Virus record (IMG/VR): IMGVR_UViG_2778261064_000025
Source: a virus
Taxonomy: Duplodnaviria > Heunggongvirae > Uroviricota > Caudoviricetes
Strand: one strand, 5' to 3'
Length of the DNA stretch: 18,722 nt
In this document: positions 171 to 16,445 of the stretch, piece after piece
Numbering within the stretch: position 1 is the first letter of the stretch
Layout: each line of letters opens with the position of its first letter
Position numbers and translations under genes: made by a program
Notes under the pieces: generated by a model
What the model was told of the DNA's origin: nothing
Database searches by the model: none
The model's input: the letters and a program-made list of their open reading frames with translations, nothing else

Positions 171-341
171 GGAGTCTCTCTTCTTGCACTTAAAGAGATG
201 GGAGGATGGGAAACTCTCAAAAAGGTTCAGAGATACGCTCACCTTTCAGCCGGGCATCTCACCGAGCACGCAAGCAAAATCGGCACGATCATAAGTCGCA
301 ATGGCACAAATACGGCACAGGAGGAAGCGTGGTGTATTTAA
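150..341 (+). pseudogene. Tyrosine integrase 3'-terminal fragment (lambdoid-type), no N-terminal domain
   Basis: Frame-3 translation SWLVQSGVSLLALKEMGGWETLKKVQRYAHLSAGHLTEHASKIG... carries the conserved C-terminal region of lambdoid tyrosine recombinases (GGW ... RYAHL with the catalytic Tyr). Upstream in the same frame there is no integrase-like sequence; it merges into the Ner-like remnant. Stop at 339-341. Confidence 0.6.
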
Positions 342-444
342 ATATGGGGTAACTACTTGATTTAAATGGTGCGATAATAGGAAAAAAACAAACAATAAAA
401 ATACATTGATATATAAAGATATTTTCACGTTACATCTTTGGAGA

Positions 445-466
445 TACCCCCAAAAGTACCCCCAAA
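445..466. repeat. Tandem direct repeat TACCCCCAAA x2 (445-454, 457-466)
   Basis: Read directly from the sequence; function unknown. Confidence 0.5.
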
Positions 467-594
467 CAATTTTCTCTCACCACCATTTGCACATAAAGCA
501 GCCATGTACAACTGGTAGTTGAACAGGCGGGTAGACCGTTCGTTCAGTAAATACCTGATATTTCCGCCAACGAGAAATTGCGTTGGCTGGCAGA

Positions 595-608
595 GTGCAA
601 ATTTGCAC
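595..608. repeat. Perfect 14-bp palindrome GTGCAAATTTGCAC
   Basis: Read directly from the sequence, in an AT-rich intergenic stretch downstream of the integrase fragment and of the PerC-like gene. Confidence 0.5.
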
Positions 609-724
609 GATGACCTAACCCATTGATTCTTTCGAAAACCTGCAATGCAGGAAGCCGGATAACACCATTTTTATAGCTCCGATCCCTTCAAAGTGAGGGG
701 TAATTTGCCAAAACAGAGAGAGCA

Positions 725-1012
725 TTACTGTCTCTGGCAATCTTTATCACGATAACGCCTGAAGTACCCTCTCGCTTCCTCATCCATACCAAGAGCCGAA
801 TGAGTCCGCTTAACTGCCTGTCTTAAATCTCCGAATCTGTCTGTAGTTGCTGGTGGGCGTGCCGCCTTACGGATACATTCAGAGCGTCTGTTTGCTGCAT
901 GTTCACGTTCTTTATCGCCATCTGCCAGCATCATGACTTCTGCCCATCGTGCGGCAGCTCTCCGGTATAGCCCTTTTGACTCCAGTTCTTCAGCTTTCCT
1001 GTCCCTTATCAT
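725..1012 (-). CDS. PerC-family transcriptional regulator-like protein (95 aa)
   Basis: ORF track 725..1012. The N-terminus MIRDRKAEELESKGLYRRAAARWAEVM resembles the PerC-family pattern (AE.LE..GL.RRAA.RW) as I recall it from prophage/island-encoded PerC/Pch homologues. Confidence 0.5.
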   Translation of the reverse strand: MIRDRKAEELESKGLYRRAAARWAEVMMLADGDKEREHAANRRSECIRKAARPPATTDRFGDLRQAVKRTHSALGMDEEARGYFRRYRDKDCQRQ

Positions 1013-1048
1013 TTCTGCCTCTCAGATTATATAGATAAGCAAAAAGGT

Positions 1049-1169
1049 GTTGGTTCAGTTGGTTCAGTTGGTTCAATTTGTAAAGATCGTTGTTTTTATT
1101 GTGTTTTTTCTGAAATATTGAACCAACATCAACTCATTTTGAACCAACACAGCCCAGCTCTGAACCAAC
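1049..1169. repeat. Iteron array L: GTTGGTTCA x3 in tandem (1049-1075) plus inverted TGAACCAAC x3 at 1119, 1140, 1161 (21-bp phasing)
   Basis: Counted directly in the sequence. The same 9-mer family recurs in mirrored arrangement at 9509-9619. Confidence 0.75.
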
Positions 1170-1222
1170 AACACAGCGATAGCTTTGTGATTGGTCCGTT
1201 ATTTTCTGGCTGATATTTGAGC

Positions 1223-1253
1223 GTATAACAGTGTTATACAGTGGTATACTGTA
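1223..1253. promoter_or_regulatory. Adjacent palindromes GTATAACA-G-TGTTATAC (1223-1239) and TACAGT-GGTAT-ACTGTA (1237-1253), candidate operator upstream of the 1272 gene
   Basis: Inverted repeats read from the sequence, 20-50 bp upstream of the ORF start. No clean -35/-10 could be assigned. Confidence 0.35.
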
Positions 1254-1271
1254 TGGATATTACTCACTGAT

Positions 1272-1712
1272 ATGGTCTTTGCAATGAGCAAATCTAATCT
1301 GGTCGCGTTCCGCATCCCATCTGAATTGCAGGATGAGTTTAATCGGTCTGTTCTCGCTTCTGGAGGGGATAAAACCTCCTGGCTTGTTGATGCGATTCGC
1401 ATGAAGCTGGGACAGCCGGAAAAGTCTATTGATTCACGAATGCTTGGGCTGGTGGAGCGCATGGAAAAAGCCGCTGCGTCGCTTATTGCCGGAAAGCCGA
1501 ACATCCCACCAAAGCCATATAACGAAACGGCAGTTATAAAGATCATTGCCGATACCATCCGACAGGGATTTGATAATGGGCGTGTGATAGCGGAACGGCT
1601 CAATGAAGCAGGCTACCAAACAAAAGCTGGTAAAGCGTGGGATAAAGACATTTACAGCGCGTGGAAGCGTCAGGGTAACAATATTAAAAGAATCAATACG
1701 CTGCTTCAGTAA
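1272..1712 (+). CDS. Hypothetical DNA-binding protein (146 aa), possible ribbon-helix-helix N-terminus; alternative start at 1284 (MSKSNL)
   Basis: ORF track. The N-terminal segment VAFRIPSELQDEF...SWLVDAIRMKLG looks like a beta-strand plus helices of CopG/Arc-type proteins. The C-terminal IAERLNEAGYQTKAGKAWDKDIYSAWKR resembles recombinase-domain HTH segments. No obvious Shine-Dalgarno. The antisense ORF 1199..1603 looks like low-complexity junk. Confidence 0.5.
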   Translation: MVFAMSKSNLVAFRIPSELQDEFNRSVLASGGDKTSWLVDAIRMKLGQPEKSIDSRMLGLVERMEKAAASLIAGKPNIPPKPYNETAVIKIIADTIRQGFDNGRVIAERLNEAGYQTKAGKAWDKDIYSAWKRQGNNIKRINTLLQ

Positions 1713-1741
1713 TTGATCAGTGTATAAATGATATTTATCGC

Positions 1742-2764
1742 TCAATCGCTCCCTTTCCGCCCTTCAGCTACAGGGTCGTTGTCGGCGATAACAAAACCTA
1801 AGTCCTGAGAGAATCTCTCTCGTGGGAATCCTTTAGCAGGTAAACCCATTGAATCATATCCACATCCGGGAACATTTGGTTTAGAGTCAATAAGGTCTGC
1901 AATTTGCCGAAGCCATGTTGATCCCGGACCAAGTCGTTTAACTAAGTACCAGATAATACAGATCGCGCTAAAAATCCTCTCGCAACTCTCTGGATGGAGA
2001 TTAAGTCCGTCAAAGTATTCATTATCCGGTACTGGAACTCGGGGATGCTTTCTATTCCATATTCTGGAATGGTGAGCGCAACGATTCCTTATGAGATTAA
2101 GGCACTTCAACCATTTTGCAAATGTCTGCTTATTATCAATGCCAAAACGACGTATAATTTTCCCCTGCATATGACCATTAAGCATCGCATAATATTTAGA
2201 CATCTGACCAAAATCCCAGGTCTCCACCGCCACCCAAAATGGAATCTCCTTGCCTTGGCTTCGATGCCATTCAATACAGTCATCTCTGCTTTCGTCTAAT
2301 TTTACTTTTTGCTTATACACCCAATGCTCGAAGGCAGATGAGAATTTTGGATTAATGTATTTTGATGACATGTAGGCAAGTGGATCATTGCGACCAACCT
2401 CATGCGCGATGACTGAACGAACATGAATCTCTATTCTTTCGATAGCATCAATCATCAAAAGACGCAGTTTTTTGTCAAAAAGATATAGATCGTACGTCTT
2501 CTCGAAACTGGTACCAGCAAGAAATCGGTCTGTTCTGTACGAAAGACCTTTATCTGTTGTCGCAATAATTCTTGATGGGTACCAAAAACCTGACAATCGA
2601 TAATATCCAACCTGCAACAGCTTACGTATCGCACGATTTCGATCATTGATAATCATGCCACGTTCAAGTAGCAATCCTAGCAATTCGTGATAGTCCTTAT
2701 GAGGCTTTGCGGCAATCATAGTGGCAAAACAAAAGATAATAAAAGGCCCGACCGTGAAACTCAC
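1742..2764 (-). CDS. Abi_2 family (AbiD/AbiF-like) abortive-infection protein; start uncertain (GTG at 2764 or ATG at 2719)
   Basis: ORF track 340 aa. Contains KPHKDYHELLGLLLERGMII...YYRLSGFWYP and RNRCAHHSRIWNR, matching the Abi_2 family signature as I recall it. Size fits AbiD/F proteins. Confidence 0.7.
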   Translation of the reverse strand: MSFTVGPFIIFCFATMIAAKPHKDYHELLGLLLERGMIINDRNRAIRKLLQVGYYRLSGFWYPSRIIATTDKGLSYRTDRFLAGTSFEKTYDLYLFDKKLRLLMIDAIERIEIHVRSVIAHEVGRNDPLAYMSSKYINPKFSSAFEHWVYKQKVKLDESRDDCIEWHRSQGKEIPFWVAVETWDFGQMSKYYAMLNGHMQGKIIRRFGIDNKQTFAKWLKCLNLIRNRCAHHSRIWNRKHPRVPVPDNEYFDGLNLHPESCERIFSAICIIWYLVKRLGPGSTWLRQIADLIDSKPNVPGCGYDSMGLPAKGFPRERFSQDLGFVIADNDPVAEGRKGSD

Positions 2765-2828
2765 ATGCCTGAAATCGGCGGCGGAGAAACAGAGGATCGG
2801 GCTCGGTTGCCTGTAACTCTATCCGAAG

Positions 2829-2931
2829 TTATCCACATGTCAATGCACAGTTACTTAGGAAACTAACATAGGTACTATCACCACTCACGAAAAACCACTA
2901 TATGTGGTTTTTATTCATATCGTTATCCACT
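2829..2931. promoter_or_regulatory. Two DnaA-box-like 9-mers (TTATCCACA 2829-2837; TTATCCACT 2923-2931) flanking a hairpin AAAACCAC-tatat-GTGGTTTT (2893-2913)
   Basis: First 9-mer matches the DnaA-box consensus TTATCCACA exactly, second has one mismatch. The hairpin is followed by a T-run. All read from the sequence; function inferred. Confidence 0.3.
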
Positions 2932-3096
2932 ACAGGCTGTGTCAATAACTTTTACCTATTAATTGGGTAATTTCTACATTTTCCTATGCTGGCTAGTTTC
3001 TCTACTGAAAAGTTGGCACTCCTTAATCGCTTTTCGGTTAATACTATCGGTTTTCATATTGCCAGCAGCATACGCCATCCGATAATTTCTATGCTA

Positions 3097-3475
3097 CGCG
3101 CGCGTACTTGTCGCAAAATATCAGGCAAAGGCCAGATTCAGAAAGTCGTGATAACCACCAGCACAACATGAGAGGTCATGTAACGCGATTTATCACACCA
3201 GATACATGTGATTAGTGTACCCGCATAAAACATCGTCATAGCGCGTCCTGTGCGCATATACGCCGATAATCAACACATCACCACCACTCTGACTTATGTA
3301 GAGAACAGTTTTATGGTACTCCCCTCCATCGTGCGCGTACTGGTCGGACGTAGTTGCAAAATTTTTTGCAACTGATACCCCTCGCGCGCGTACTTGTCTC
3401 GAAATTGGTGTTTTGCTGTGGCAGTGATATCAGAAAAATCTTCCTGTTTCACATAAAGCGGATATGCGCGTACTG
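3097..3475. repeat. Four direct copies of GCGCGTACT (3100-3108, 3333-3341, 3386-3394, 3466-3474); copies 1 and 3 extend to ~20 nt (CGCGCGCGTACTTGTC.C.AAAT)
   Basis: Read from the sequence. The motif falls in different codon phases of the overlapping ORFs, so it is conserved at DNA level rather than protein level. Confidence 0.55.
3353..3372. repeat. 20-bp AT-rich palindrome GTTGCAAAA-TT-TTTTGCAAC
   Basis: Perfect inverted repeat read from the sequence, lying between repeat copies 2 and 3. Confidence 0.5.
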
Positions 3476-3589
3476 TAACGGCCCCATCAACTGGGAGCGG
3501 ATTTGAAATCCCGACCCAAGCTATGTACCAAATGCCATGTCTTGGATATATGATGATTGCCATTCTAAACAACGCTAAAGGGGGTTGGT

Positions 3590-4204
3590 GTGAGCAGAAA
3601 AGATACTAAAGAATTGCTAACTATCTGCATGGTGTACTTTTCAATTTATTTTTGTGCATACATGATAGTCCCAGATGAGTTTGAACATGGCAGTATTATT
3701 TATTCCATAACATTCTATTTTTTAGAGCTAACACCAATTTTGGCTATCCTTTTGGCAATACATATTTATTTTTCCTTAAAAAAAGAATCGACTAATTGGG
3801 AGAAGGTATGGAGAGACAGAGGATTTCTAACATCACCTAAAGATGATGCATATGAGAGTGATTTTTCTGACTTTATAACAAACTACTACTCCAGCGAACA
3901 ATTCAAAAATAGACTGTCTGATGTTTGGGAAACAGCAATGTATTCCATAGGGATTATATTATTGATACTTACTGGTATTGCTCAATATGTTTTTAACATT
4001 GACTTATCATTAAATCCTGAAAATTTAATATCGCCATTGATTTTTGGTGAGATATTGATCTTCTCATTCGGAATTTTCTTGAGTGTTGTTCTCTGCTCAT
4101 TATGCAAGCTACTGACTAACAGGTATCCAGGTGAAGCAAGGAGAGCAAGAAAGGCAAATCCATATTATCTTTTATTTCCTAATGGAGACAGCAGAGATAT
4201 CTAA
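3590..4204 (+). CDS. AT-rich multi-pass membrane protein (204 aa), unknown function
   Basis: ORF track. GTG start preceded by GGGGG about 6 nt upstream. Several hydrophobic helices (e.g. LLTICMVYFSIYFCAYMIV, LTPILAILLAIHIYF, AMYSIGIILLILTGIAQYVF, ILIFSFGIFLSVVLCSLC). Visibly lower GC than flanking genes. Convergent with the 701-aa gene. Confidence 0.6.
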   Translation: MSRKDTKELLTICMVYFSIYFCAYMIVPDEFEHGSIIYSITFYFLELTPILAILLAIHIYFSLKKESTNWEKVWRDRGFLTSPKDDAYESDFSDFITNYYSSEQFKNRLSDVWETAMYSIGIILLILTGIAQYVFNIDLSLNPENLISPLIFGEILIFSFGIFLSVVLCSLCKLLTNRYPGEARRARKANPYYLLFPNGDSRDI

Positions 4205-4223
4205 GCCATCCATGGCTAACCAG

Positions 4224-6329
4224 TTATTGAGCTTCTTTTTGTGATGCCTGTGCGACTCTGGTGAGCGATTGTGTGACCGTACTGATCGCTCTGTCATATG
4301 CTGTGCTACCTTTTGGCGTATTTGCCAGACGTAACAAGGCATTTCGTATAACAGGGCTTTCGTATGCCTTCGCTGCTCCGCCTACGGCACCAGCAGCAGG
4401 AACAACAAACGCAGCCGTTTTTAGCATCCCCGCTAATACTGCTGCGTTTATGATGCCACCACCAACTAACAAACCATAAAGCTGCTGACCATTTAAGTTT
4501 TGAACGTTCGCTTTTGCCGCGTGTCTTGTATCGTTGAGGTATTTAATAACGCCGTCCAGTTCCTTTCCATGTACGCCTTTAAAGAAAGTTGCTGATTGCT
4601 TCCTGTTCCGGTGTAACGCATTAATAAACTTCTCAACACTGATATTTCCAGACGGATCAGTCGCCTTATCTACAGCATTCTGAACTATGGCTGCTCGTGC
4701 GTTTTGCCTACCATTGTCATCCAGAAGCCTGTAAAGCTGAGAACGTTCTGATGGGTTTTGGCTAAAAACGAGTTTTGTTACATCCTCAGGCGTGGCCTTG
4801 CCGCTGGCTATTGCCTTTTGAACGCGCGTTCTTCCCATCATGTCATTAAATTTAGACCATGAGCGATCAACCCTTGCCATATTAATGGCTTCGTCTGCTC
4901 CAAGATTTTTGGCTACGGCTTTTTTCATATCCGCCGTATATGCCTTGTAGATAATATCGCTGGCTTTCTGGAGCGTATCTTTATCAACAGTGTCAGATGA
5001 CGCCATAAATCGCTTTCGAAGATCGGTTCTGTTTTCCCTCGCCAGACGCAGGTCATTTGGTCCGCTGGTGATATCGTCTTTAAATTGCTGCAAGACTTTT
5101 ACCGCGGCTCTATCCTGAGATTTGCCCGGGCGGCTTAACACGGCAATCTGATTGTCGATAGCTTTTACCGTGTTTGAGAGATCGACAGGGGTATCCCCCA
5201 TAGCGTCAATTATGCGGTTATATCGCTTTCCTGCTGCCTCAATGAATTTTTGTTGCCCTTTAGTCGCAGATTCATAAAGCTGTTTATCAGAAATGCCACC
5301 CAGACCATCGCTAAATGTTCTGACTAAATTTTCTCGTGCTTGTTGTTGATTCAGCCGATTCTTACCGGTTCCAAAAAAAGGAACTCTTTCGCCTAATGTC
5401 TGAGCCTGACTCTGCATAAAGGTTTTATCTTTTAGCATGTCACTGGTCATTAACGGCAGATTTCTTTCCGATGCAAAGTCGACAGCAGCCTTTGCTTCAG
5501 GCGACATATCACCACGAACAGCCCTCGAAACCGCACTCGCTGTATTTTCCAGCCCCTTACCAATACCACCAATGCCAGCAGAAATTACCGTTTGTAACGG
5601 ATCAATATCTTCTCCACCAGCAAGGCTAGTGGCTCCCTGTAGTGCTAAATCTGTAGCTGCTGATTTTCCTATGGCACCAAGCACCGTTCCAGCCCTGCCC
5701 GCTGGTGTAAACGCCAGCGCATTAGCCAGAAACGATGCCACGTCTTGCGGCGATAAACCCGGCTTGTTCAGAGCATAATCACCGGATGGCAGGGAAACGA
5801 TAGTGTTACCCTTCTCATCCTGCCTTAATTTCGCTCCCATGCTCTGAAGAATCTTTTCCTGAGATGCGTCAGAGCCGAAAAGTTGAGACCATCGAGCTTT
5901 TAGAGCATCCATGCTGAGTGAGGTTAACTCTGGGGCAAGGTCGACATTTTGCAGTCTCTCCATCTCTGGAGTCATTCGGCTTTCGCCTGTTATAGCATCG
6001 CGCATCGCAGCCCCAAGACTGGCTCCCTGTTCTGCTGAACGCTCAAGCCCCTCTCTTTGCTGAGTAGCTAACTTTGCATACCCTGACGCAAGAGAATTAT
6101 CAGATGATGTATGTTGAATATTTTGAGTTGCTGATTGGGATCGGTCTATTTCATTCGTTGATGGTAGTGGATAGGCAGCATAAAAAGCCTGCTTAGCCTG
6201 CTCTACACTTTCTCCGGCTTGCGGGGCCACGACTTCATTGAAGTATTGCTCCTGAGCCTGCGCTTTTTGTTCTGGTGCTAACGCCTGATACTGTGGAGAG
6301 GCGATAACATCTTTCCATGCTTTAGCCAT
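4224..6329 (-). CDS. Putative DNA-ejection (injection) protein, P22 gp16-like by size and position (701 aa)
   Basis: ORF track. Last gene of a four-gene translationally coupled operon (TAATG overlap at 6329). Ala/Gln-rich with a Gly-rich hydrophobic segment near the C-terminus (LYGLLVGGGIINAAVLAGML...). Assignment is by analogy to the P22 14-7-20-16 order; no search run. Confidence 0.5.
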   Translation of the reverse strand: MAKAWKDVIASPQYQALAPEQKAQAQEQYFNEVVAPQAGESVEQAKQAFYAAYPLPSTNEIDRSQSATQNIQHTSSDNSLASGYAKLATQQREGLERSAEQGASLGAAMRDAITGESRMTPEMERLQNVDLAPELTSLSMDALKARWSQLFGSDASQEKILQSMGAKLRQDEKGNTIVSLPSGDYALNKPGLSPQDVASFLANALAFTPAGRAGTVLGAIGKSAATDLALQGATSLAGGEDIDPLQTVISAGIGGIGKGLENTASAVSRAVRGDMSPEAKAAVDFASERNLPLMTSDMLKDKTFMQSQAQTLGERVPFFGTGKNRLNQQQARENLVRTFSDGLGGISDKQLYESATKGQQKFIEAAGKRYNRIIDAMGDTPVDLSNTVKAIDNQIAVLSRPGKSQDRAAVKVLQQFKDDITSGPNDLRLARENRTDLRKRFMASSDTVDKDTLQKASDIIYKAYTADMKKAVAKNLGADEAINMARVDRSWSKFNDMMGRTRVQKAIASGKATPEDVTKLVFSQNPSERSQLYRLLDDNGRQNARAAIVQNAVDKATDPSGNISVEKFINALHRNRKQSATFFKGVHGKELDGVIKYLNDTRHAAKANVQNLNGQQLYGLLVGGGIINAAVLAGMLKTAAFVVPAAGAVGGAAKAYESPVIRNALLRLANTPKGSTAYDRAISTVTQSLTRVAQASQKEAQ

Positions 6330-7750
6330 TAATCACCCCATAGTGAAGAAAAGTTACTGCTGGCTGCTGGCTGTGATACCTGCTCAGATTGCGGCAATGT
6401 CTGCGACGAAGAAGAAGTTCCTCTGTCAACTGCTGAAATAACCCGCAAAGCATCATAAGCTCGACCAGAAGCAGCTTTCAGCGAATTGAACTGGTTTTCC
6501 ATCTTCCGGCGCTTGGTATCAATGGTTTTTGTGGAATCACCAGGCTGAGGGAAATACATTTGATAATATTTGGACATTTCAGCTGGTACGATGGCTGCCC
6601 CTGTTTCCTGACGGAGTATTGCCATTATTGCGTCATTAGCATTAACAACGTATTGCTGTTCTGTTGGGCTGAGCGTTAAGTTAGCCAGCGTCCCATTACC
6701 CAAAGCATTATTAATGATCGCCACTCGCTGTGGGCTAAGCTGGTCTTTCAGTGTATCTATTGAATCAAGAGCATCCCTAACCCTGTATGCAAATCCAGCA
6801 GCTTTTTTAGCCCCTTCTGGCGACTTTTCCATGATCTTTTGGGCTGTTGGCAAAGCTATTGGACGAAACCCATCTCCAGATATTGGCTGGTTTAGTTTTC
6901 CCTGCTCTTCACTTCCGTCTGTGTAGTATTTTGTGACAGTGCCATCATCGTTTTCTCTAACACTCATTAATTTTTTGGCGTTTGTATTAATTCCAGCCGC
7001 TGCCGCAAATGCCGCCGCCCCCTCTGGATCCGCCTTTAACATTTGAGCGTACTGATTGTAATTCTGCATTGCTGCTGTTGGTGCATATGCTGACGTTAAC
7101 GCATTTGCTCGGCTAATATCCTGCCCTCTCGCCTGAAGTGCTTCGCCAGCCTGATTGCTGCGGATTGTTTCTGCCAACTTGCCACGCTCAATATCCCGAC
7201 CTTCCATTTGATCTTTGATATCGAAATACTTCTCATGACCGAGAGAAAACAGTGCCATACTACCAGCAAGCCGCTGGAACCCCTGTGGATCATTAACATG
7301 CATTTCGGCAACAGACTCAGGAGAAATTCCCAAGCGACGCATTTCATCTTCGTTATCTGCTATGAATTTTCCAAATGCCCCAGTTCCGAGCGAAGATGCG
7401 ATTTGAGCACTAGTCGCAAGATGACCAATAGAATTTCTCTGGTCGTCATCAATAAAGCCCATCCCTTTCTGAACGCTTTCAAATTCTTCTGGATACTCAG
7501 AAATAAGACTGCGCATTTTGTTTCTGTCTCCAGACTCAAAAGCCCCGGCATATGCTTTCTGAAACTCTGCTTTACGCTGTTGTTGACGTGCCGGCTGATT
7601 AATCTCAGCAACGCCTCTTAGCCCCTGTAGCGCCATTAAACCTACGTTTGGCTGCTGCTGATACTGCACAGGCTGAGGAACGGAAGAACGAGGAGCATTA
7701 TCATTTTGCGGTGCCATGCTAGGCAGCCCGCCAAGTTGCCATGTCGCCAT
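6329..7750 (-). CDS. Putative DNA-ejection protein, P22 gp20-like by size and position (473 aa)
   Basis: ORF track. TAATG start/stop overlaps at both ends. 473 aa compared with ~471 aa for P22 gp20 as I recall it. Gln-rich N-terminus. Confidence 0.5.
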   Translation of the reverse strand: MATWQLGGLPSMAPQNDNAPRSSVPQPVQYQQQPNVGLMALQGLRGVAEINQPARQQQRKAEFQKAYAGAFESGDRNKMRSLISEYPEEFESVQKGMGFIDDDQRNSIGHLATSAQIASSLGTGAFGKFIADNEDEMRRLGISPESVAEMHVNDPQGFQRLAGSMALFSLGHEKYFDIKDQMEGRDIERGKLAETIRSNQAGEALQARGQDISRANALTSAYAPTAAMQNYNQYAQMLKADPEGAAAFAAAAGINTNAKKLMSVRENDDGTVTKYYTDGSEEQGKLNQPISGDGFRPIALPTAQKIMEKSPEGAKKAAGFAYRVRDALDSIDTLKDQLSPQRVAIINNALGNGTLANLTLSPTEQQYVVNANDAIMAILRQETGAAIVPAEMSKYYQMYFPQPGDSTKTIDTKRRKMENQFNSLKAASGRAYDALRVISAVDRGTSSSSQTLPQSEQVSQPAASSNFSSLWGD

Positions 7751-8427
7751 TAGAATCCAAGCCCCCCAACAAGACCAATAAGCCCACCACCAATAGCGCC
7801 GGCCGCAGTTCCTATTCCAGGAACAACGGAACCAAGTTGCGCACCCGCTAAAGCGCCTGATGCTGCCCCACCAATACCACGCGCAAGACTGGATGGCTGC
7901 TGCGCCTGACCTGCACGAATAGCGCCAAGCCCCTGCAAGAGTTGTCCGGTATTATTGGCGTAGTTTTGCCCTGCCGTTGCCTGCCCTGATGCCGCATTCA
8001 TCCCGACATTTAGCAGGTTTCCATAATTTTGCATTTGCCCACTAAGCCAATTGTTATAAAGCATGGGCGCAATGGAAGATAACTGGTTACTGGTAGCTGT
8101 TGAGCCAAGCCCCCCGGTAGCTTCTGCTGAGACAAGGTTCTGATAACGGGCCTGATCTGCCTGTGTTTTATATAAACCAGAACCAAAGAAATCATTCGCG
8201 GCTTTATTCTGCCCTTCCAGAGTCATCAGTCCTTGTAGTTGTTGTAAAGCAGGCAATCCGACTTCTGCATACGGCTTGAGATTATTCATCACCGTATTCC
8301 ACTGCTCGCGCTGCAAATCAATTGCCTGCTGCTGGGCCTTCGCCTGAGCTTTAGAGGCACCACCATCACCGCCTTTTTCGTATACGGCACGATTGAGATG
8401 TTTATGAGCTATATGGGTAATTAACAT
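7750..8427 (-). CDS. Putative DNA-ejection protein, P22 gp7-like (225 aa)
   Basis: ORF track. N-terminal ...NRAVYEKGGDGGASKAQAKAQ resembles the P22 gp7 leader region (...PEKGGKGG...) as I recall it. C-terminal Gly-rich hydrophobic tail GIGTAAGAIGGGLIGLVGGLGF. 225 aa compared with 229 aa for gp7. Confidence 0.55.
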   Translation of the reverse strand: MLITHIAHKHLNRAVYEKGGDGGASKAQAKAQQQAIDLQREQWNTVMNNLKPYAEVGLPALQQLQGLMTLEGQNKAANDFFGSGLYKTQADQARYQNLVSAEATGGLGSTATSNQLSSIAPMLYNNWLSGQMQNYGNLLNVGMNAASGQATAGQNYANNTGQLLQGLGAIRAGQAQQPSSLARGIGGAASGALAGAQLGSVVPGIGTAAGAIGGGLIGLVGGLGF

Positions 8428-8882
8428 TCGCTGAATTCCTTATATTGTTGCCGAGTTAACTGATAAAGCGTTACGCCGACGGGTTTACCACATCTGATAT
8501 AAGCATCATCAAGGTGACCAACACGGGTAGCGCCAAGCAAACGGATAATTGCCCGTCCGTATTTCGTGGTGTCAGGAACCATAGTGATGCTGTTAAGGAA
8601 TGGTGAGTTTTCGAGAAGCCATTTGCAGAATAATCGATGTCCTTGCAGTGCATATTCACCACGGAATCCGGGGTCGTACACCGCATGGCATTCAACAACG
8701 CTATGCCAGAAGTTACGCACTTCATGAACGCCAGCCAGCACTAATCCTTCGTAGATGCCGAGATATACCGCATCAGGCTTGATGTAGTACGTGTGCCCCG
8801 GCTCAACAATATTTTCGGTATTGCCTGGCTCGTTAAGAAAGGCCTGTAATCGCACAGGGTTATCAATAAATTTTAGTTCCAT
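8421..8882 (-). CDS. Hypothetical protein (153 aa), position and size consistent with P22 gp14-like / DUF2824-type protein
   Basis: ORF track. First large gene of the operon; its stop overlaps the start of the next gene (ATGTTAA). Family assignment is from memory only. Confidence 0.45.
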   Translation of the reverse strand: MELKFIDNPVRLQAFLNEPGNTENIVEPGHTYYIKPDAVYLGIYEGLVLAGVHEVRNFWHSVVECHAVYDPGFRGEYALQGHRLFCKWLLENSPFLNSITMVPDTTKYGRAIIRLLGATRVGHLDDAYIRCGKPVGVTLYQLTRQQYKEFSEC

Positions 8883-8898
8883 GCGATGCCATCCATTT

Positions 8899-9060
8899 TC
8901 ACATACAGCCTGCCAGCGCCTTATCTATTAACCCTCGTGCAATTTCATGCAGAGTTGGCGCTACTCCAATTCCTGATTTTTTACGCTGCTCTTCCTGAAT
9001 TTTCTTTATCGCTTCCATTTGCTTCTCACTTATCAATACCGGCTTTACTGAAATAGCCAT
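8899..9060 (-). CDS. Small ORF (53 aa) MAISVKPVLISEKQMEAIKKIQEEQRKKSGIGVAPTLHEIARGLIDKALAGCM, possible small DNA-binding protein
   Basis: Hand-translated; below the 60-aa cutoff of the ORF track. ATG at 9058-9060 on the minus strand, preceded by GGGGG (plus-strand CCCCC 9065-9069). Ends 16 nt before the 153-aa gene. Confidence 0.45.
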   Translation of the reverse strand: MAISVKPVLISEKQMEAIKKIQEEQRKKSGIGVAPTLHEIARGLIDKALAGCM

Positions 9061-9073
9061 AACGCCCCCTTAG

Positions 9074-9099
9074 AACTGTATAAAACAACAGTTATTATA
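9074..9099 (-). promoter_or_regulatory. LexA-box-like CTGT-ATAAAACA-ACAG (9076-9091) immediately downstream of a perfect minus-strand -10 TATAAT (9094-9099)
   Basis: Read from the sequence. Matches the CTGT-N8-ACAG SOS-box pattern with an AT-rich spacer. The -35 is weak (TGAATA-like), so the promoter call is tentative. Confidence 0.4.
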
Positions 9100-9155
9100 G
9101 TTTCACAAATCGCAATATTCATCATCGTAATTGCAAAATATGAAACAAATAGCAC

Positions 9156-9187
9156 AAAAAAATGCCACCGCTCAGTAGCTGGTGGCA
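9156..9187 (-). terminator. Rho-independent terminator on the minus strand (stem TGCCACC/GGTGGCA with inner GCT/AGC pairs, followed by a 7-nt U-run)
   Basis: Plus-strand 9156-9187 reads AAAAAAA-TGCCACC-GCTCAGTAGCT-GGTGGCA. On the minus strand this is a hairpin followed by TTTTTTT. Lies downstream of the primase gene and iteron array, upstream of the 9094-9099 promoter. Confidence 0.55.
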
Positions 9188-9508
9188 TCGTTCTGTGTGT
9201 CAGGTTTTGACAGGTTTTTTATGGACTCTAAAAACTATATTTATGGTGTCGCATTACTCTTCACGGCAGGCGCTTTTCAGTTCTGCCCTTGCTTCTGGCT
9301 CCATTGGTAATTTGATTCGCGATCAGCTATGCGGATGGTTTGCTGAACAGGCATAACAACTTCTCAGAGGCTGTTTTCTGAACTACGAAAATTTCGTAGT
9401 GCTCACTTTCAAAAACGTCACGCCCTTGTACACAGGATTTTACGAAAGTCTCGTAAAACACTCTCTGATGCCAGCCAGGTGTTGTGCGCATCAATTCAGT
9501 CACATTGT

Positions 9509-9619
9509 GTTGGTTCAAAATACCGTGTTGTTGGTTCAGTGTTGGTTCAATAAAAAGAATAAAATCCTTATAAAACAATACTCTTTACAAATTGAACCAA
9601 CTGAACCAACTGAACCAAC
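9509..9619. repeat. Iteron array R: GTTGGTTCA at 9509, 9530, 9541 plus TGAACCAAC x3 in tandem (9593-9619); mirror image of array L
   Basis: Counted directly in the sequence. Immediately downstream of the primase-helicase stop (9645). Confidence 0.75.
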
Positions 9620-9644
9620 ACCTTTTCTACGCACATGAAGAAGC

Positions 9645-12404
9645 TCATTCTTCAGATGAGTTATAATCTCCTGGCTGGTAATTGAGTACATAAACGTTTA
9701 TTTGTCGTCCCTGAATACGTGGTGATTTTCTTTGGTATCCACGACCGCTGTTTGGTGGGGTTAGCATCCCGGCTTTTTTCAACACTTCAGCAAACTGTTT
9801 TGCGTTGAAACCACATGCGATCTCCTTTTCAAATGTGGCCGGGAATGTGTAGAAAATCATTGGGCTTTCGTCATGTTCTCCACGCTGACGGTATCCGGCT
9901 AAATCTTTGATGGGCAAATCTGCCGGGCTGTATGGAAATGGTGCAAAACGGCTAAGCCCATAGGCATTAAGAAATGCCTCCGTTTGTTCAATAATCTGCT
10001 GATGCTCTTTGTTACCTGTGCCGAACTCGCGCAACCATGCGTTATAGCTGTGCTGTATCGCATCACGGCATGTCTGAGCATCCCAGCCTGTTACAACCTC
10101 GCCTAACAACAATGCGGCCTCCAGAATGGCAAATCGCGCGGCTACACGGTGAACCTGCTCACCATAATCGGATGGGATCAGGCTTCTCCATCTGCTTTCG
10201 CAGTCGCGAACGGTTTTAATAGCCTGTTGCTGGTGGTCTGCCAGCCATTTAATCCACTCACGCCCGGACGCGCCGTGGTGATGCTGGTAAGCGTCTTTCA
10301 GTGCGTCTGCGTGCTGTTTTCCGTTCTGGTAATCGTGAAAGCGTACTGCTTTACTCAACGGAATATTCAGCAGTCGCACCAGTTGCCCGGCTTTGGTTTT
10401 TCGCCCGGAAGTAGCGATAAATGTTTCTAAATCCATTTCTCCGGTGCTGATTGCCACTGTACGCCAGCGTTTTAGATCCCGGTTTCCACCATCTTTAGCG
10501 CCTTGCAGTTTCCCTACACCGTTAAATAACGCATAGGCAGACTGTGAAACGCTGACAGGATCAGCGCCCTGACCAACTTCATCAAGCGGCATTAGTCCGT
10601 CATTGTGGGCGGCGGCCTCATTTGCCAGCCCCAGCGCGGTTCCGTACCACGTCAGCCGCAGTAAATCAGGGTTGCCGTATAAGCTGCTCGCCACGTTTGC
10701 CGTGGTGGTCTTACCTGCGCTCGACTGCTCATAGAAATGAATGCCGAACCCGTCAGCGCCCACCAGCCCAATCAATGGCGCTGCCAGTGCTGCGCCGATC
10801 CCGGTCATCATTGAATAGTTACCAAAGGCCAGACGCGCCACGTTATCACGCCAGCTTTTCGCGCTCCCTGAGACGGTATATCCGGCTGCGGCTGAGCTTC
10901 TCCCGCTGAACAGCACAGGATTTTCAGGTGTTCCGATGATTTCCCCATCAGGCATGATGTACGCTCCGCATTGCCAGCCAGTGGCATGAGCAACACGCCA
11001 CAATTCACGAGAGCCACTGCGTTGTAGCCAGTCTGCCAGTATTGCTCTGAGGCTGCTTTTGGTCGTGACATTTACCCCACCAGCTTTAAGTGTGCGCCAT
11101 CCTTCACGTTCACCAATATCAGCCAGTGGAATGGCAGCGGTTGTCGGCGTTTCAGAACCAAACGACAGCCAGCGAAGAATGAGATACTGGTCTTTATCGT
11201 CTCTGCCAGTACCGATAACGCTTAACGGAGAACATAACCAGCTTTCGTTATTGATGATTTCTCCACTCTGGCTGTCAGCTCTCGGAGATACCCAATAAAT
11301 ACCATCCTCGCGGCTTTCTATTCTTGGTTTCAGTGGGTCGGTATCCATAACCTTAAAATCGCTTCCCTCAATGGTCTGTGGCTCCTGTTTCACGCCATTA
11401 CCCTGTGGTTGGTACATTGACTTATTGAACGCTTCTGTGGCGCATTTAATGCCGTGTTTTTGGTGGTAATCATTCCAGTCTGCTTTGTGATCTGTCGGGG
11501 GTAATGCCACCCATCCAGAAACAGATAAAGCTGCTTTTTCTGCTGCTATTCTCCCCGTGTTTTGTCTTCCTTCGCTGTGGTCGTTATCCGCAGCAATGAT
11601 GATTTGTGCTGAAGGAAATTTATCCCGCAGTACCTGGGCGACATATAACAGGTTCCCGGCATCAATCGCCGCCACTGTCAGCGCCTCTGGACGAATTAAA
11701 TGGGCAGATAATGCCGTTGCCAGCCCTTCTGCGATTAAGATGCTCTGTGTTGTTTCTGGTGCGTTTATGGCGTGATATGCCCCCCGCTTTGCTGAACCTG
11801 TCAGGAGTCTTTTTTCACCATGTGAGGTAATAGTCTGTGCTGCTGTGACTGCGCCGGATTTATCCACCAGCGCCAGCAACAGAGATCCATCGGGCAACAC
11901 GGGGAATGTAAAATCACCTACCCCTTTCGCAACCAGATAATCAGATTTGCCGTTTACAGCCTTTCTGCGCATGTCATCAAACTGACGGGAAAACGTATCC
12001 CGTCTTTGTTGTTCGTCCTTCTCTGCCCTTTTCAGGCGCTCCTGTTCGCGTCGCTGGCGCTCGGTTTCCAGTTGTTCCCGTTTCTGGCTGGTGGCTTCTG
12101 GTGTTTCCGTTGTCCGGTAATCAATACCCAGAACATCAGCGGCAAGAAGCGCCGCCTCTGTTGTGTCGCAGTTATTTACGCGTTTAATTAAATCCAGCCC
12201 ATCACCAGCGCCGCACTGATTACAGATGAAGCTACCGCGCCCGTTGTCATCGAACCGGAATCGATCTTTGCCCCCACATGCAGGGCAGGGAGCATGACGG
12301 CGCGGAGAGTCAGGGACATTTATGTTCAGGCAGCCCAGCACATGAGGCCAGTTGTTTTCAGACGCACTGATAACCTGACGGATAAGATCAATGTTTCGCA
12401 TCAC
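9645..12404 (-). CDS. Primase-helicase, P4 alpha-like (zinc-binding primase N-terminus + TOPRIM + P-loop NTPase), 919 aa
   Basis: ORF track. N-terminal CPACGG...FICNQCGAG zinc-finger pairs, TOPRIM-like ILIAEGLATALS ... IIIAADNDHSEG, Walker-A-like SSAGKTT in the C-terminal half. Domain order typical of P4 alpha / D5-type island primases. Confidence 0.85.
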   Translation of the reverse strand: MMRNIDLIRQVISASENNWPHVLGCLNINVPDSPRRHAPCPACGGKDRFRFDDNGRGSFICNQCGAGDGLDLIKRVNNCDTTEAALLAADVLGIDYRTTETPEATSQKREQLETERQRREQERLKRAEKDEQQRRDTFSRQFDDMRRKAVNGKSDYLVAKGVGDFTFPVLPDGSLLLALVDKSGAVTAAQTITSHGEKRLLTGSAKRGAYHAINAPETTQSILIAEGLATALSAHLIRPEALTVAAIDAGNLLYVAQVLRDKFPSAQIIIAADNDHSEGRQNTGRIAAEKAALSVSGWVALPPTDHKADWNDYHQKHGIKCATEAFNKSMYQPQGNGVKQEPQTIEGSDFKVMDTDPLKPRIESREDGIYWVSPRADSQSGEIINNESWLCSPLSVIGTGRDDKDQYLILRWLSFGSETPTTAAIPLADIGEREGWRTLKAGGVNVTTKSSLRAILADWLQRSGSRELWRVAHATGWQCGAYIMPDGEIIGTPENPVLFSGRSSAAAGYTVSGSAKSWRDNVARLAFGNYSMMTGIGAALAAPLIGLVGADGFGIHFYEQSSAGKTTTANVASSLYGNPDLLRLTWYGTALGLANEAAAHNDGLMPLDEVGQGADPVSVSQSAYALFNGVGKLQGAKDGGNRDLKRWRTVAISTGEMDLETFIATSGRKTKAGQLVRLLNIPLSKAVRFHDYQNGKQHADALKDAYQHHHGASGREWIKWLADHQQQAIKTVRDCESRWRSLIPSDYGEQVHRVAARFAILEAALLLGEVVTGWDAQTCRDAIQHSYNAWLREFGTGNKEHQQIIEQTEAFLNAYGLSRFAPFPYSPADLPIKDLAGYRQRGEHDESPMIFYTFPATFEKEIACGFNAKQFAEVLKKAGMLTPPNSGRGYQRKSPRIQGRQINVYVLNYQPGDYNSSEE

Positions 12405-12759
12405 CGTACCCCACGTGGTCTATAGCGTTTGCGATATGGCTAACCAGCATCTGCCACTTGGTTATTCCGTAATCAGTCAGCATGCCATCATTGTTTAGCC
12501 ACATATCAAATTCAGCGGTTGTCGCAAGTTTCCACTTATCGCCGTGGACAGTCCTCATTGCTGGGTACATGAATGCGCAAATCAGATCACAAACATCTGA
12601 CGGCTTCAGAGATGTAGTAATGGTGCGTCCCTCTGGCGTCTGAATTGCCATTTTCTCTTCACCAGTAGAATGAAGGTTATGAATCCACACAGCACCAGCA
12701 ATCTTTGCCACCTGCTCTCCGATTGCGGAGCTAAGCGCCATTTCTGCATTTTCACGCAT
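12388..12759 (-). CDS. Hypothetical protein (123 aa)
   Basis: ORF track. ATG at 12757-12759 preceded by GGGAGG. 8-nt overlap with the upstream gene's stop; its own stop overlaps the primase start. Confidence 0.55.
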   Translation of the reverse strand: MRENAEMALSSAIGEQVAKIAGAVWIHNLHSTGEEKMAIQTPEGRTITTSLKPSDVCDLICAFMYPAMRTVHGDKWKLATTAEFDMWLNNDGMLTDYGITKWQMLVSHIANAIDHVGYGDAKH

Positions 12760-13093
12760 GAGAACCTCCCGCTACAGTTGCGCCCATGTCATTAACCATG
12801 CTTTGCCATATCTCACGCCCGACGTCAGTCAATCCGTCCTTAGTGACGCAACGCTCAAGAAGCTCGATCCCCACGGTTTCCCACTGCGGGTAGAACACTT
12901 TCATGGCTGCCAGTGTGTAGCTATCGATCAGGCTGCGAACGCCTTTTACTCCATTGACGATTTCCACACGTACGGCCTCGCCGTCCGCATCAACCATGAA
13001 ATAGTCCCCGCCGCTGGTGGAGGTAATGTGGTTATACAGTGCCGACGCATACTTATTTGCCAGCGCATTCAGTCGGAAATTTTTAGTAATCAT
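12752..13093 (-). CDS. Hypothetical protein (113 aa)
   Basis: ORF track. ATG at 13091-13093 with an upstream GAGG/GGAG; packed in the overlapping small-gene operon. Confidence 0.55.
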   Translation of the reverse strand: MITKNFRLNALANKYASALYNHITSTSGGDYFMVDADGEAVRVEIVNGVKGVRSLIDSYTLAAMKVFYPQWETVGIELLERCVTKDGLTDVGREIWQSMVNDMGATVAGGSHA

Positions 13094-13103
13094 GGCTCCA
13101 TCC

Positions 13104-13706
13104 TCAGTGCGTCACTGGTTCCGCTGGCATGCCGTTTTCATTCAGTTCAGCTATAAAGCTGTTGTGAAGTTCAGCAAGCGTTTCACGACCAAATGGAGTC
13201 AGTGCTCCTTGTTCCACATCCATCATGGCTCTGTAGAAAATGATGGCGCGTTCTGTGCCAGACTCGATGCCAAAACGTTCTATCATCGCGCCCTCAATGT
13301 TGTTTGCCATAGCGAGGCGCTCTGCTACTGGATACAGCGGCATGGCGACGATGCCGTTGGAATAAACAGCCACTTCGGAAGGATTGCCAGTATCATCAAT
13401 GATGCTGACAGTGCCGTTTTCCTCTCTCATTTCCAGCATGAATACTGTTGCGATCAGCCATCTCCACATAATGACGTTATGCTGTGATGTGTAATCGAAA
13501 TATCCCTGGTTGCCGCCATCGGCTATAGCGAGATGTATTGACATGCCTTCATCTGGTTTATCGTCATAATCCCCGGCATCCAGACGATTTACGGCATCAA
13601 TATATGAGACGGTCTCAACGCGTTCTGTCATGCCATCGTTGCTGCGGTGCATGATGTTTACGCCGTCAGGCGTTGCTTCTGCATGGAAAGTTAAGAAATT
13701 ATTCAT
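13104..13706 (-). CDS. Hypothetical protein (~200 aa from ATG 13704-13706; ORF track extends to 13811)
   Basis: The internal ATG at 13704-13706 is preceded by AGGCGAGG and overlaps the upstream gene's stop by 8 nt, matching the coupling pattern of its neighbours. The longer 235-aa reading is possible. Confidence 0.5.
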   Translation of the reverse strand: MNNFLTFHAEATPDGVNIMHRSNDGMTERVETVSYIDAVNRLDAGDYDDKPDEGMSIHLAIADGGNQGYFDYTSQHNVIMWRWLIATVFMLEMREENGTVSIIDDTGNPSEVAVYSNGIVAMPLYPVAERLAMANNIEGAMIERFGIESGTERAIIFYRAMMDVEQGALTPFGRETLAELHNSFIAELNENGMPAEPVTH

Positions 13707-13920
13707 GTTTCGCCTCGCCTGAATGATTCTGTAACTCATATTTGCCCAACAATTCGTCTGCTTCCTGAATAGCTTCTGGTACGCCATTGAGCAGTGACAT
13801 AACCGCGCCAATCATTAACTTGTCTCTGTTGCTGGGGCTGGCCCCTTCAAGCCAGAACCCTAAAACAGTCTGAACCTGTTCGATGCGACATTGCGCTTCA
13901 ATGAGCTGGATGTTGGTCAT
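13699..13920 (-). CDS. Hypothetical small protein (73 aa)
   Basis: ORF track. ATGA start/stop overlap with the upstream gene at 13917-13920. Confidence 0.5.
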   Translation of the reverse strand: MTNIQLIEAQCRIEQVQTVLGFWLEGASPSNRDKLMIGAVMSLLNGVPEAIQEADELLGKYELQNHSGEAKHE

Positions 13921-14180
13921 TTCGCACTCTCCGCATCGATTAAACTGATATCTATCAGAGAGGTAACTTTTTGTAGCCAGCTAGTGATTACTGTCGCCTG
14001 TTCCCCTCCCACCGATGGAAGAATCTCATTCATCACATGAACCAGACCTGTGCGCGCTCTGGTAAGCCGTTCAGTCGTGCGATCTGCAAGAGTGAATGTG
14101 TCTGGATATGGCTCTTCACGGCTCAGCAATGATTCAATTTCCAGCTCACACGGATGACGATAAATTAAGTTGATATTCAT
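13917..14180 (-). CDS. Hypothetical small protein (87 aa)
   Basis: ORF track. ATG at 14178-14180 preceded by GGGGG; ATGA overlap with the upstream gene. Confidence 0.55.
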   Translation of the reverse strand: MNINLIYRHPCELEIESLLSREEPYPDTFTLADRTTERLTRARTGLVHVMNEILPSVGGEQATVITSWLQKVTSLIDISLIDAESAK

Positions 14181-14371
14181 TTTTCACCCCCAAGAATTAC
14201 CAGCTCTGCACGGGCATCGTTAACCAAAGATGAGTACGCTTTAATCGCATCCACGACATCAGTAGCGTCCATTTCTTCAGCCGAAAGACTGACAGCAACC
14301 AGGACAGCCGCTGCTTGCTCGATTAATTGAAGTGCGGACGTAAGGCGAGGGGTATTAATTGAGTTATTCAT
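14177..14371 (-). CDS. Hypothetical small protein (64 aa)
   Basis: ORF track. ATG at 14369-14371 preceded by GGGGG; 8-nt overlap with the upstream ORF's stop. Confidence 0.55.
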   Translation of the reverse strand: MNNSINTPRLTSALQLIEQAAAVLVAVSLSAEEMDATDVVDAIKAYSSLVNDARAELVILGGEK

Positions 14372-15431
14372 TGGTTTCCCCCGTTTTTACTGGCATTTCG
14401 CCACCTTCCAGCAGGAAATGAACGTCACGAACGGCGAGATCCAATATCGCGAGTAACGCCTTCAGTCTTTCGTCTCGTGAGGGAGAGTTGCTCACCAGAA
14501 TGTCGTTAATCACTTCTGTCAGTGTGATGATCTGGCTTGTGCGTTCGAGGGGATCCATATGCACATCGTAGGTTTTAATCATGTGCCACCTCCATGCGGA
14601 TACGACCAGCAAAAAAGCAGACGTGATCGCGCACCAGAGAACGGCGAGCATCGCGTTCAGACTCGGCAGCAATATGATGAATTTTGGCGGTAATTGTCGG
14701 GCAATCGCGGCGAACTGCGGCGATAATCCAGATAAATTGCGGTTTTTGGGTAGGGGTAGTAGCCAGCATGTGGCAGCCTCCATTCGATAGCATGTAACGC
14801 TACCACCGGAAACGCCAATTTCGCTGGTGGTAGCCCAGACAGGGTTGGCGTAACCGGCTCGAATGGATACCGGCGCTTCCGAAGAAGCCCCTGCCTGAGC
14901 CACCATTGATTGACAAAGGCGCTGGATTATACACCAACGCCCAAAAAATGGGTGAGTCAGACCTACGACATAAAAAAAGACGCTCGGCGCGTCATATGTC
15001 GCCATTCGATTTACCAGGACGCCAATCCCGGCACCCGTTTTATGAGGTGCCTTATAACCATAAACCGTGTTGCCGCATAACGGCAAGCTCTTTTTTATGG
15101 ACTCCGAAAACTCACTATTGGAAGAACCAGAAGCACAGTACATCGCGCTCATTTCGTTAACGTCACGCGCGTGGACGAAGGTTTTTGTGGAGTCACTACG
15201 CGAGCAGAGAAAGCCATCTACGACCAGAAATTCTCTGGCGCAGCCGCTGACCTTCTCAACGCTAACACCATCGACCGTAATTTCTGACATAGTTAAGGCA
15301 TCCGCTCCTACCACCAGCAAATGATAAACTTTGCTTGTATCTGCTGTATTAATGCCTGACTTTGCTGTCATATTGCTGGATTTTGGCGACATACCAGCCA
15401 GTGAAAATGTCTTCTTCTGGGCGGTTAGCAT
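14364..15431 (-). CDS. Long ORF (355 codons), hypothetical; may instead be two genes, with a separate 72-aa product starting at ATG 14580-14582
   Basis: Continuous stop-free frame of 1068 nt. Start at 15429-15431 preceded by GGAGG and overlapping the DUF4222-like stop (ATGCTAA). A second in-frame ATG at 14580-14582 has its own GGAGG 6-7 nt upstream. The middle section translates to unconvincing sequence. Confidence 0.35.
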
Positions 15432-16433: not shown

Positions 16434-16445
16434 TTTCAGTCTCCG

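Follow-up and report, generated by a model that had tools for sequence, protein, structure and literature searches.

We describe a candidate superinfection exclusion gene, related to sieA of phage P22, in an 18,722-nucleotide (nt) stretch of DNA catalogued as IMG/VR virus record IMGVR_UViG_2778261064_000025 (Caudoviricetes). The whole stretch is referred to here as the window, and positions are those of the window unless another locus is named. The gene (3590-4204, + strand; 204 amino acids, aa) converges on a gene for a P22 gp16-type ejection protein. Judged by its sequence, its product is a homologue of SieA and a divergent member of that family. By analogy with the family members of known activity, the protein probably acts as an inner-membrane block to DNA delivery by P22-like phages, a reading to which we assign a probability of roughly 0.7.

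P22 SieA is both necessary and sufficient for preventing P22-like phages from injecting their DNA, and it needs no other phage protein (PMC10883804). It resides exclusively in the inner membrane, where it stops DNA injection and K+ release, and it acts on P22-like phages only (PMC10883804). A high multiplicity of infection partly overcomes the block, and to escape SieA a phage has to acquire changes in gp16 and gp20, in their C-terminal parts (PMC10883804). Three types of SieA, approximately 25% identical to one another, have been distinguished (Leavitt et al. 2024, mBio, PMC10883804). Type A is the P22 protein. Type B is that of the Escherichia coli HS1 prophage, has an N-terminal extension of approximately 30 aa with an extra transmembrane (TM) helix, and acts identically to type A (PMC10883804). 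Type C has been described only from Providencia, Morganella and Proteus, with an N-terminal extension of approximately 40 aa and approximately 10 extra C-terminal residues. The additional N-terminal TM segment is described for types B and C alike, and E. coli and Salmonella prophages are said to carry type A or B (PMC10883804). The HS1 protein (EcHS_A0321) excludes P22, L, MG40, MG178, LP7 and P22 hybrids.

Sequence evidence for membership in the SieA family

The protein shows significant similarity to P22 SieA and to tested relatives. In BLASTP comparisons, it matches P22 SieA at E=8e-8 (29% identity over 108 aa), sharing the motifs ERF-x-NR-[IL]-[ST]-D and RYPGEA, and it matches the experimentally tested SieA of E. 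coli HS1 at E=2e-9 (34% identity over 118 aa). Alignment with hhalign gives 96.2% (E=2.5e-9) from a four-sequence profile and 97.4% (E=1.1e-11) from a 15-sequence profile. A search of PHROG returns a single family, phrog_7745 ('superinfection exclusion SieA-like', E=4.4e-4), which is also matched by the Citrobacter, Providencia and Morganella relatives introduced below and by the SieA proteins of P22 and HS1.

The match is also specific within the window. A hidden Markov model (HMM) built from type A sequences only picks out this protein alone among the 140 open reading frames (ORFs) of the window, at 24.2 bits, with the next best ORF at 1.3 bits. That score was reached by none of 2000 composition-preserving shuffles (maximum 10.5 bits) and by none of 2000 shuffles that preserve the hydropathy segments (maximum 16.9 bits), which argues that the match is not an artefact of membrane-protein composition. 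In the reverse direction, a HMMER profile of the protein and its close relatives recovers 43 proteins at E<=1e-3 from 1.84 billion representative proteins. Most are 160-200 aa long and align over the same C-terminal region. Of three that were sampled, two (P0022 and P0050) carry PF26849:SIEA and the third (P0023) has a faint match. The exact window protein itself has a weak precomputed match to PF26849:SIEA.

Other family resources are silent. Scanned copies of Pfam and NCBIfam give no family for the protein, even at E<=10, and these scans are uninformative because the copies lack the PF26849 model and P22 SieA itself matches nothing in them. Likewise, PADLOC, which has no SieA model, reports nothing for this protein or for bona fide SieA. 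Recognition thus depends on the PHROG SieA-like family and on the weak precomputed PF26849 match, which amounts to an annotation gap.

The first-pass annotation of the window had proposed a SieA-like factor from its place at the moron position after gene 16 and had stated that there was no sequence evidence for the function. The proposal gains from the SieA homology and from the finding that the closest relatives occupy the canonical sieA slot of complete P22-like prophages. The reservation no longer stands: by BLASTP, hhalign, PHROG and the shuffles, the protein is a statistically solid, distant SieA homologue.

The gene and its composition

The ORF begins with GTG and ends with TAA. The sequence shows a Shine-Dalgarno-like AAAGGGGG at 3577-3584 (+), 5 nt 5' of the GTG. 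The identical coding sequence has the RefSeq entry WP_000087355.1, 'hypothetical protein'. An open frame of 204 codons would arise by chance at approximately 1e-7 per start (our own arithmetic from the composition, with about 7.5% stop codons expected). That this is a real gene follows from its full-length homologues in other genera (31-49% identity), which keep both its length and its motifs. A GTG start is common to this gene (3590), P22 sieA (locus L002, 3831) and the Citrobacter homologue (L004, 10001), the last with AAAGGTAAG upstream. These starts are consistent with the low expression reported for P22 sieA.

The gene is AT-rich. Its guanine plus cytosine content (GC) is 33.0%, compared with 47.3% for the gp16-like gene, 46.9% for the gp20-like gene and 46.8% for the whole window, and the lowest 400-nt GC anywhere in the window (0.315) falls within it. 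The drop in GC relative to the neighbours was therefore annotated correctly. Reading it as a sign of recent acquisition was rejected: the contrast is family-wide, with P22 sieA at 33.7% against 49.9% for gene 16 and HS1 sieA at 36.3% against 47.1%, and gp20, gp16 and sieA co-vary as a block. Low GC would then mark the gene as a 'moron' and not as a recent local arrival, AT-richness being a general property of sieA genes.

Predicted topology and conserved residues

Kyte-Doolittle hydropathy gives four hydrophobic segments, at approximately aa 9-27, 39-57, 112-135 and 150-168. An AlphaFold2 model made with 15 homologues (predicted local distance difference test score, pLDDT, 77.8) has long helices at 3-30, 36-65, 105-133 and 149-176, and two additional short helices within the central loop. 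The multi-pass membrane protein of the first annotation is thus borne out, and a topology prediction, the check proposed with it, yields four membrane segments on which hydropathy and the structural model agree. The N-terminus, the 54-aa middle loop and the C-terminal tail are rich in lysine and arginine (K/R) and the two short loops have none, which points to an N-in/C-in orientation. By prediction, this is the architecture of SieA, with three TM helices in type A and four in types B and C.

The N-terminal helical hairpin (TM1, approximately aa 9-27, and TM2, approximately aa 39-57; 3614-3760, +) is delimited by hydropathy, charge and the AlphaFold2 model. Its short connector is acidic, free of K/R and predicted to be periplasmic. 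TM1 is the helix absent from P22 SieA, and TM2 corresponds to TM1 of the P22 protein; in the Citrobacter homologue (P0003), the alignment to the PHROG SieA profile begins at aa 47. The C-terminal hairpin (TM3, approximately aa 112-135, and TM4, approximately aa 150-170; 3923-4099, +), defined by hydropathy and the AlphaFold2 model, aligns with TM2/TM3 of P22 SieA and has a short connector, again without K/R and predicted periplasmic.

Between the hairpins lies a basic loop of 54 aa (aa 58-111; 3761-3922, +), predicted to be cytoplasmic from its charge count and notable for the invariant columns of its alignment: W74, R77-G78, Y88, F92, F95, Y100-S101 and N107-R108-x-S110-D111 do not vary in the clade. 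The F-x-N-R-[LI]-[ST]-D block of the loop is common to this protein and the SieA proteins of P22 and HS1.

The best-conserved motif of the SieA family follows TM4. It is represented here by CKLLTNRYPGEARRARK (aa 172-188; 4103-4153, +), a juxtamembrane stretch identified from the sequence, from alignments and from the published family motif FxRYPxEAxxFNK, which lies on the membrane's cytoplasmic face (PMC10883804), as is predicted for this protein. Residues 176-188 read TNRYPGEARRARK. Compared with the published motif, R, Y, P, E, A and K are kept, the first F is replaced by T, and FN by AR. The TNRYPGEARRAR variant occurs throughout the Providencia/Morganella clade.

By prediction, most of the conserved residues face the cytoplasm or border the membrane. 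Such a distribution favours a site of action in or at the inner membrane, where gp16 presumably acts. As the sequences are divergent yet alignable, they also provide a short list of invariant, mostly cytoplasmic residues for mutation, which bears on how SieA works. No solved structure was found in the PDB among the relatives of the protein.

Placement among the SieA types

Full-length relatives were collected by a profile search of a 5.8-billion-protein collection. The closest is a Citrobacter freundii protein, 49% identical over the full length, followed by two metagenomic proteins (37-39%, full length) and by a Providencia/Morganella/Proteus clade with 31-33% identity over 94% of the length. 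When clustered at 30% identity, the protein and its full-length relatives form one cluster, apart from types A and B, to which the overall identity of the protein is 25% and 27%, respectively. The clade has its own signatures, namely W-[RK]-[DE]-R-G, Y-x3-F-x2-F, YYSS-x4-NR-x-SD and C-[KR]-x2-TNRYPGEARRAR. Two scans of GTDB species-representative genomes gave no confirmed relative.

On these sequence comparisons, the protein apparently belongs to an Escherichia/Citrobacter branch of the type C lineage. Genus, position and architecture lead us to infer that the Providencia/Morganella relatives are the published type C. Their proteins are of similar length (195-201 aa, against 204 aa here), have two N-terminal and two C-terminal TM helices, and share W-[RK]-[DE]-R-G, YYSS-x4-NR-x-SD and TNRYPGEARRAR; their genes lie beside gene 16 in the sieA slot. 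On the other hand, they are identical to the window protein at only about a third of positions, and the E. coli/Citrobacter branch is distinct (approximately 10 extra C-terminal residues). The hosts also differ: those of type C are three Morganellaceae genera (PMC10883804), whereas the branch described here occurs in Escherichia and Citrobacter. If the placement is right, a SieA lineage believed to be limited to Providencia, Morganella and Proteus now extends into Escherichia and Citrobacter.

The two tested SieA proteins resemble the window protein in other ways. Like it, HS1 SieA has four TM helices (the extra one N-terminal) and an NRYPGEAR motif, and its AT-rich gene is convergent with gene 16 and associated with thrW of E. 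coli. The two are nevertheless only 27% identical overall, and the N-terminal 80 residues do not align. Moreover, HS1 sieA is flanked by gene 16 and the tailspike gene of a complete P22-like prophage, whereas the only virion genes around the window gene are those of ejection proteins (E-proteins). P22 sieA, the founding member, shares the tail-to-tail arrangement with gene 16, the low GC and the GTG start; its product has 164 aa and three TM helices, so that the window protein, at 25% overall identity, is 40 residues longer with a fourth, N-terminal helix.

More remote comparisons are functional only. HK97 gp15, Tuc2009 Sie2009, TP-J34 Ltp and T4 Imm/Sp are envelope proteins, encoded by phages or prophages, that block DNA entry after adsorption (discussed in PMC10883804). 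These are analogues: the window protein has no match to their families in Pfam, PHROG, NCBIfam or PADLOC, and they target phages with other tail types.

Genomic settings of the relatives

The Citrobacter homologue is found in a complete P22-like prophage with the gene order coat, gp4, gp10, gp7, gp20, gp16, the SieA-like gene, orf105, mnt, arc, ant, tailspike and int. Its gp20 gene (L004, 13512-15313) is interrupted by an IS21-family insertion sequence (rve and IstB). The prophage is probably defective; the sieA-like gene is intact. The same mnt-orf-sieA slot, convergent with gene 16, is occupied in Morganella and Providencia (31-33% identity), at a metagenomic locus (P0060 in L013, 37%) and in two IMG/VR prophages.

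A second setting was found in two lambdoid early regions from IMG/VR (L028, 574-1173, and L030, 9995-10594), where 199-aa homologues with 35-37% identity are encoded directly downstream of a CI-type repressor gene (HTH_3 and Peptidase_S24). The same SieA lineage thus uses the moron slot of the immunity region as well. In L028, a SieB homologue is encoded nearby (1864-2493). The position downstream of CI is a classic one for genes expressed by a prophage, and the settings of the relatives are typical of genes by which a resident element protects its host.

More distant family members are carried by int-AlpA islands as cargo or have genes for a primase and a small terminase as neighbours. These cases, together with the element described in the next section, show that sieA genes leave P22-like prophages and end up elsewhere as cargo, both in small integrative islands and in lambdoid immunity regions. 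Among the distant members are natural gp16-SieA fusions, P0050 (L015, 10001-11293; L016, 1337-2629) and P0038. In these, residues 1-69 of the window gp16 have a counterpart (54% identity, E=1e-19), after which come a TM region and a SieA domain (PF26849). P0050 is cargo of small int-AlpA-Rep islands that have no phage structural genes. The fusions hint that SieA-type domains physically contact the ejection-protein conduit.

The thrW island of E. coli

Of 5426 complete E. coli genomes, 103 carry the gene. It is chromosomal in each of them, and every copy is annotated as hypothetical. In 102 of the 103, which come from diverse hosts, we find an intact ORF with at least 99% identity. Genomes that cover at least 80% of the window number 123 of the 5426, the block being approximately 99% identical, and public assemblies list the exact protein in 5749 blocks. 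A gene present in about 2% of the complete genomes of E. coli, Shiga-toxin-type lineages among them, is still a hypothetical protein in every record seen.

Every copy inspected lies in an island of approximately 18 kilobases (kb) beside tRNA-Thr (thrW) and not in a P22-like prophage, the setting that the comparison with P22 had implied. The order of the island is int, AlpA, antirepressor, Ash, small ORFs, a TOPRIM/DUF927 primase gene, gp14-gp7-gp20-gp16, the sieA-like gene, a variable cassette and PerC. The int-AlpA-primase backbone thus carries only an ejection-protein module. In the window, where the island spans 299-18722, the sole phage-derived DNA is gp14-gp7-gp20-gp16-sieA (3590-8882), with all five genes intact; genes for tailspike, head, tail and packaging are absent from the element, as are mnt/arc/ant. 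In a blastn comparison of the region with phage records, homology is confined to the E-protein genes and ends at the start codon of gp14 (8882). A tblastn search of 50,697 phage records with the SieA-like protein gave no match. The gene therefore shares with the sieA slot its convergence with gp16 but not the tailspike-flanked P22-like prophage, unlike the homologues of Citrobacter, Morganella and Providencia and P0060. A literature search for satellites or islands with P22 ejection-protein genes or sieA found nothing relevant.

Some variation was seen among the copies. In a comparison of 7382-8911 with L001, L008 and L024, some copies lack gp14 and gp7; their gp20 has 488 aa and differs in its N-terminal part, and a 57-aa ORF is present, whereas gp16 and the sieA-like gene are unchanged. 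In an IMG/VR variant (L026), sieA and gp16 are kept, but gp16 is separated from the int gene by approximately 1.3 kb without a match.

Proposed mechanism and competing explanations

Homology, predicted topology, synteny and distribution are established in silico, and we infer exclusion activity, target range and expression from SieA types A and B. By that analogy, the SieA-like protein would reside in the inner membrane of a cell carrying the island. Once an adsorbed P22-like podophage had released gp7, gp20 and gp16, its ejection proteins, the SieA-like protein would prevent the trans-envelope conduit of gp20/gp16 from forming or working at the inner membrane. The phage DNA would fail to reach the cytoplasm, and other phage types would be unaffected. 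The block might come about through direct contact with gp16/gp20 or through occlusion of a host inner-membrane factor such as YajC, two possibilities that stand for P22 SieA as well. The sieA-like gene would then be one layer of the anti-phage cargo of the thrW island, beside a variable slot that holds AbiD in the window. Its SieA-like identity predicts that carrier strains resist P22-like coliphages, which is relevant to phage typing, therapy cocktails and transduction.

Several observations count against this reading. Overall identity to the two tested SieA proteins is low (25-27%) and limited to the C-terminal 100 residues, the published motif is kept only in part (F and FN are not conserved), and the experimentally studied SieA proteins are of types A and B, whereas the lineage of this protein is apparently type C. 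A Foldseek search of the BFVD viral models with the AlphaFold2 model found nothing below E=0.85 and so adds no independent structural support. The gene lies outside a P22-like prophage, unlike every case of Leavitt et al. (PMC10883804), and its role in an island could differ. Finally, a promoter and terminator scan gave nothing convincing: there is no sigma-70 consensus directly upstream, and counts are not above those of shuffled sequence. The nearest promoter-like site (3059-3086) is approximately 500 nt from the start of the gene.

The composition of the island suggests a different role, although we regard it as improbable. The thrW island could be a satellite with P22-like phages as helpers, into whose capsids it loads its own gp14/gp7/gp20/gp16, and could carry a matched SieA variant, so that self is told from non-self at DNA entry: particles with the island gp20/gp16 would enter, and competitors or the helper would be excluded. 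The phage DNA of the island is indeed exactly gp14-gp7-gp20-gp16-sieA, all intact, with phage homology stopping at the gp14 start codon, and the block is kept at approximately 99% identity across 123 of 5426 genomes, the exact protein recurring in 5749 assembly blocks. The loci of SieA escape, gp20 and gp16, are retained even in copies without gp14 and gp7, and gp20, gp16 and sieA co-vary between lineages. The backbone (int, AlpA, antirepressor and primase) is satellite-like, SieA-family genes occur in other satellite-like islands, and the gp16-SieA fusions P0050 and P0038 would fit direct contact between SieA and the conduit. However, types A and B show no difference in specificity towards divergent E-proteins (PMC10883804), which argues against matched pairs of SieA and E-proteins, and the co-variation can be plain linkage. 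The window has no packaging, capsid-remodelling or cos/pac function, and no paper describing such an element was found. The E-gene block could also be left from a tandem integration at thrW, since the HS1 prophage is likewise at thrW and is followed by a second integrase gene.

The sieA-like gene and its E-protein neighbours could, at the other extreme, be an inactive relic: what is left of a P22-like prophage that decayed and was joined to a thrW island next to it. P22-like prophages use this same site, no clear promoter was found, and head, tail and tailspike genes and the mnt/arc/ant region are all missing; in addition, gp14/gp7 are gone from some copies, and the loss goes further in one IMG/VR variant. 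Decay is hard to square with an ORF that is intact and at least 99% identical in 102 of 103 genomes from diverse hosts and present in thousands of assemblies. Further, 0.5 kb of upstream sequence is conserved among the island variants compared, gp16 and gp20 are full length, and P22 SieA works without other phage proteins (PMC10883804). A dead relic is thus unlikely.

Least credible, and rejected on distribution across island copies and homologue loci, is the idea of the first-pass annotation that the protein is a membrane partner or effector of the neighbouring Abi_2/AbiD: the two genes lie 0.8 kb apart and both occur in six of eight sampled island copies, which is evidence of proximity only, but they are on opposite strands, the Abi_2 cassette (1683-3087) is replaced in NZ_CP062910 and L022 with the sieA-like gene still in place, and Abi_2 is absent beside all homologues in other genera (Citrobacter, Morganella and Providencia) and at the IMG/VR homologue loci.

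Neighbouring genes and the variable cassette

As first annotated, the gene directly follows the last of the ejection-like genes, with which it converges. The spacer between the two stop codons (4205-4223) is 19 base pairs (bp) long, compared with 22 bp between P22 sieA and gene 16, and no terminator hairpin was found in it. The gp16-type gene (4224-6329, -) encodes an intact protein of 701 aa (phrog_770/29117; PF26808, Phage_P22_gp16, in identical copies). It is preceded by genes for an intact gp20-type protein of 473 aa (6329-7750, -; PF16928, E=1.8e-57; phrog_917) and, over 7750-8882 (-), for a gp7-type ejection protein (7750-8427) and a gp14-type DUF2824 protein (8421-8882), supported by PF25688 and PF11039.

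In P22, gp16 is a component of the inner-membrane conduit, and the mutations that escape SieA map to gp16 and gp20 (PMC10883804). The window gp16 is 76% identical to that of the Citrobacter prophage, 36-38% identical to those of Morganella and Providencia, and approximately 30% identical (over part of the length) to those of P22 and HS1. The gp20 protein follows the same lineage pattern, with 45-47% identity over the full length to gp20 of Providencia/Morganella. This pattern indicates that gp20, gp16 and sieA were inherited together as a block from a phage of that lineage. With respect to the SieA-escape sites, the equivalent of G532 is conserved in the island gp16, and the region of P546 is not reliably alignable.

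Upstream of the sieA-like gene, a 0.5-kb stretch (3088-3589) is conserved in all island variants compared, as defined by the boundaries of blastn blocks. A tblastn search with mnt and upstream ORFs found no remnant of mnt, arc or the upstream ORF there.

Beyond this stretch lies the swappable cargo cassette (1683-3087), which in the window contains an Abi_2/AbiD gene (1742-2764, -; PF07751; PADLOC AbiD). Most copies carry Abi_2/AbiD in this place, L022 has a pair of genes for proteins of 318 and 145 aa, and NZ_CP062910 has small ORFs; in these last two, where the cassette is replaced, the block that starts at 3088, with the sieA-like gene in it, stays the same. The slot has the look of a hotspot for variable cargo (defence) next to a constant SieA gene. 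A PerC-family transcriptional activator is encoded at 725-1012 (-), and the sequence to the left of approximately 299-930 varies between strains. At the far end of the island, the edge of the window holds a C-terminal fragment of a second tyrosine integrase (87-341, +).

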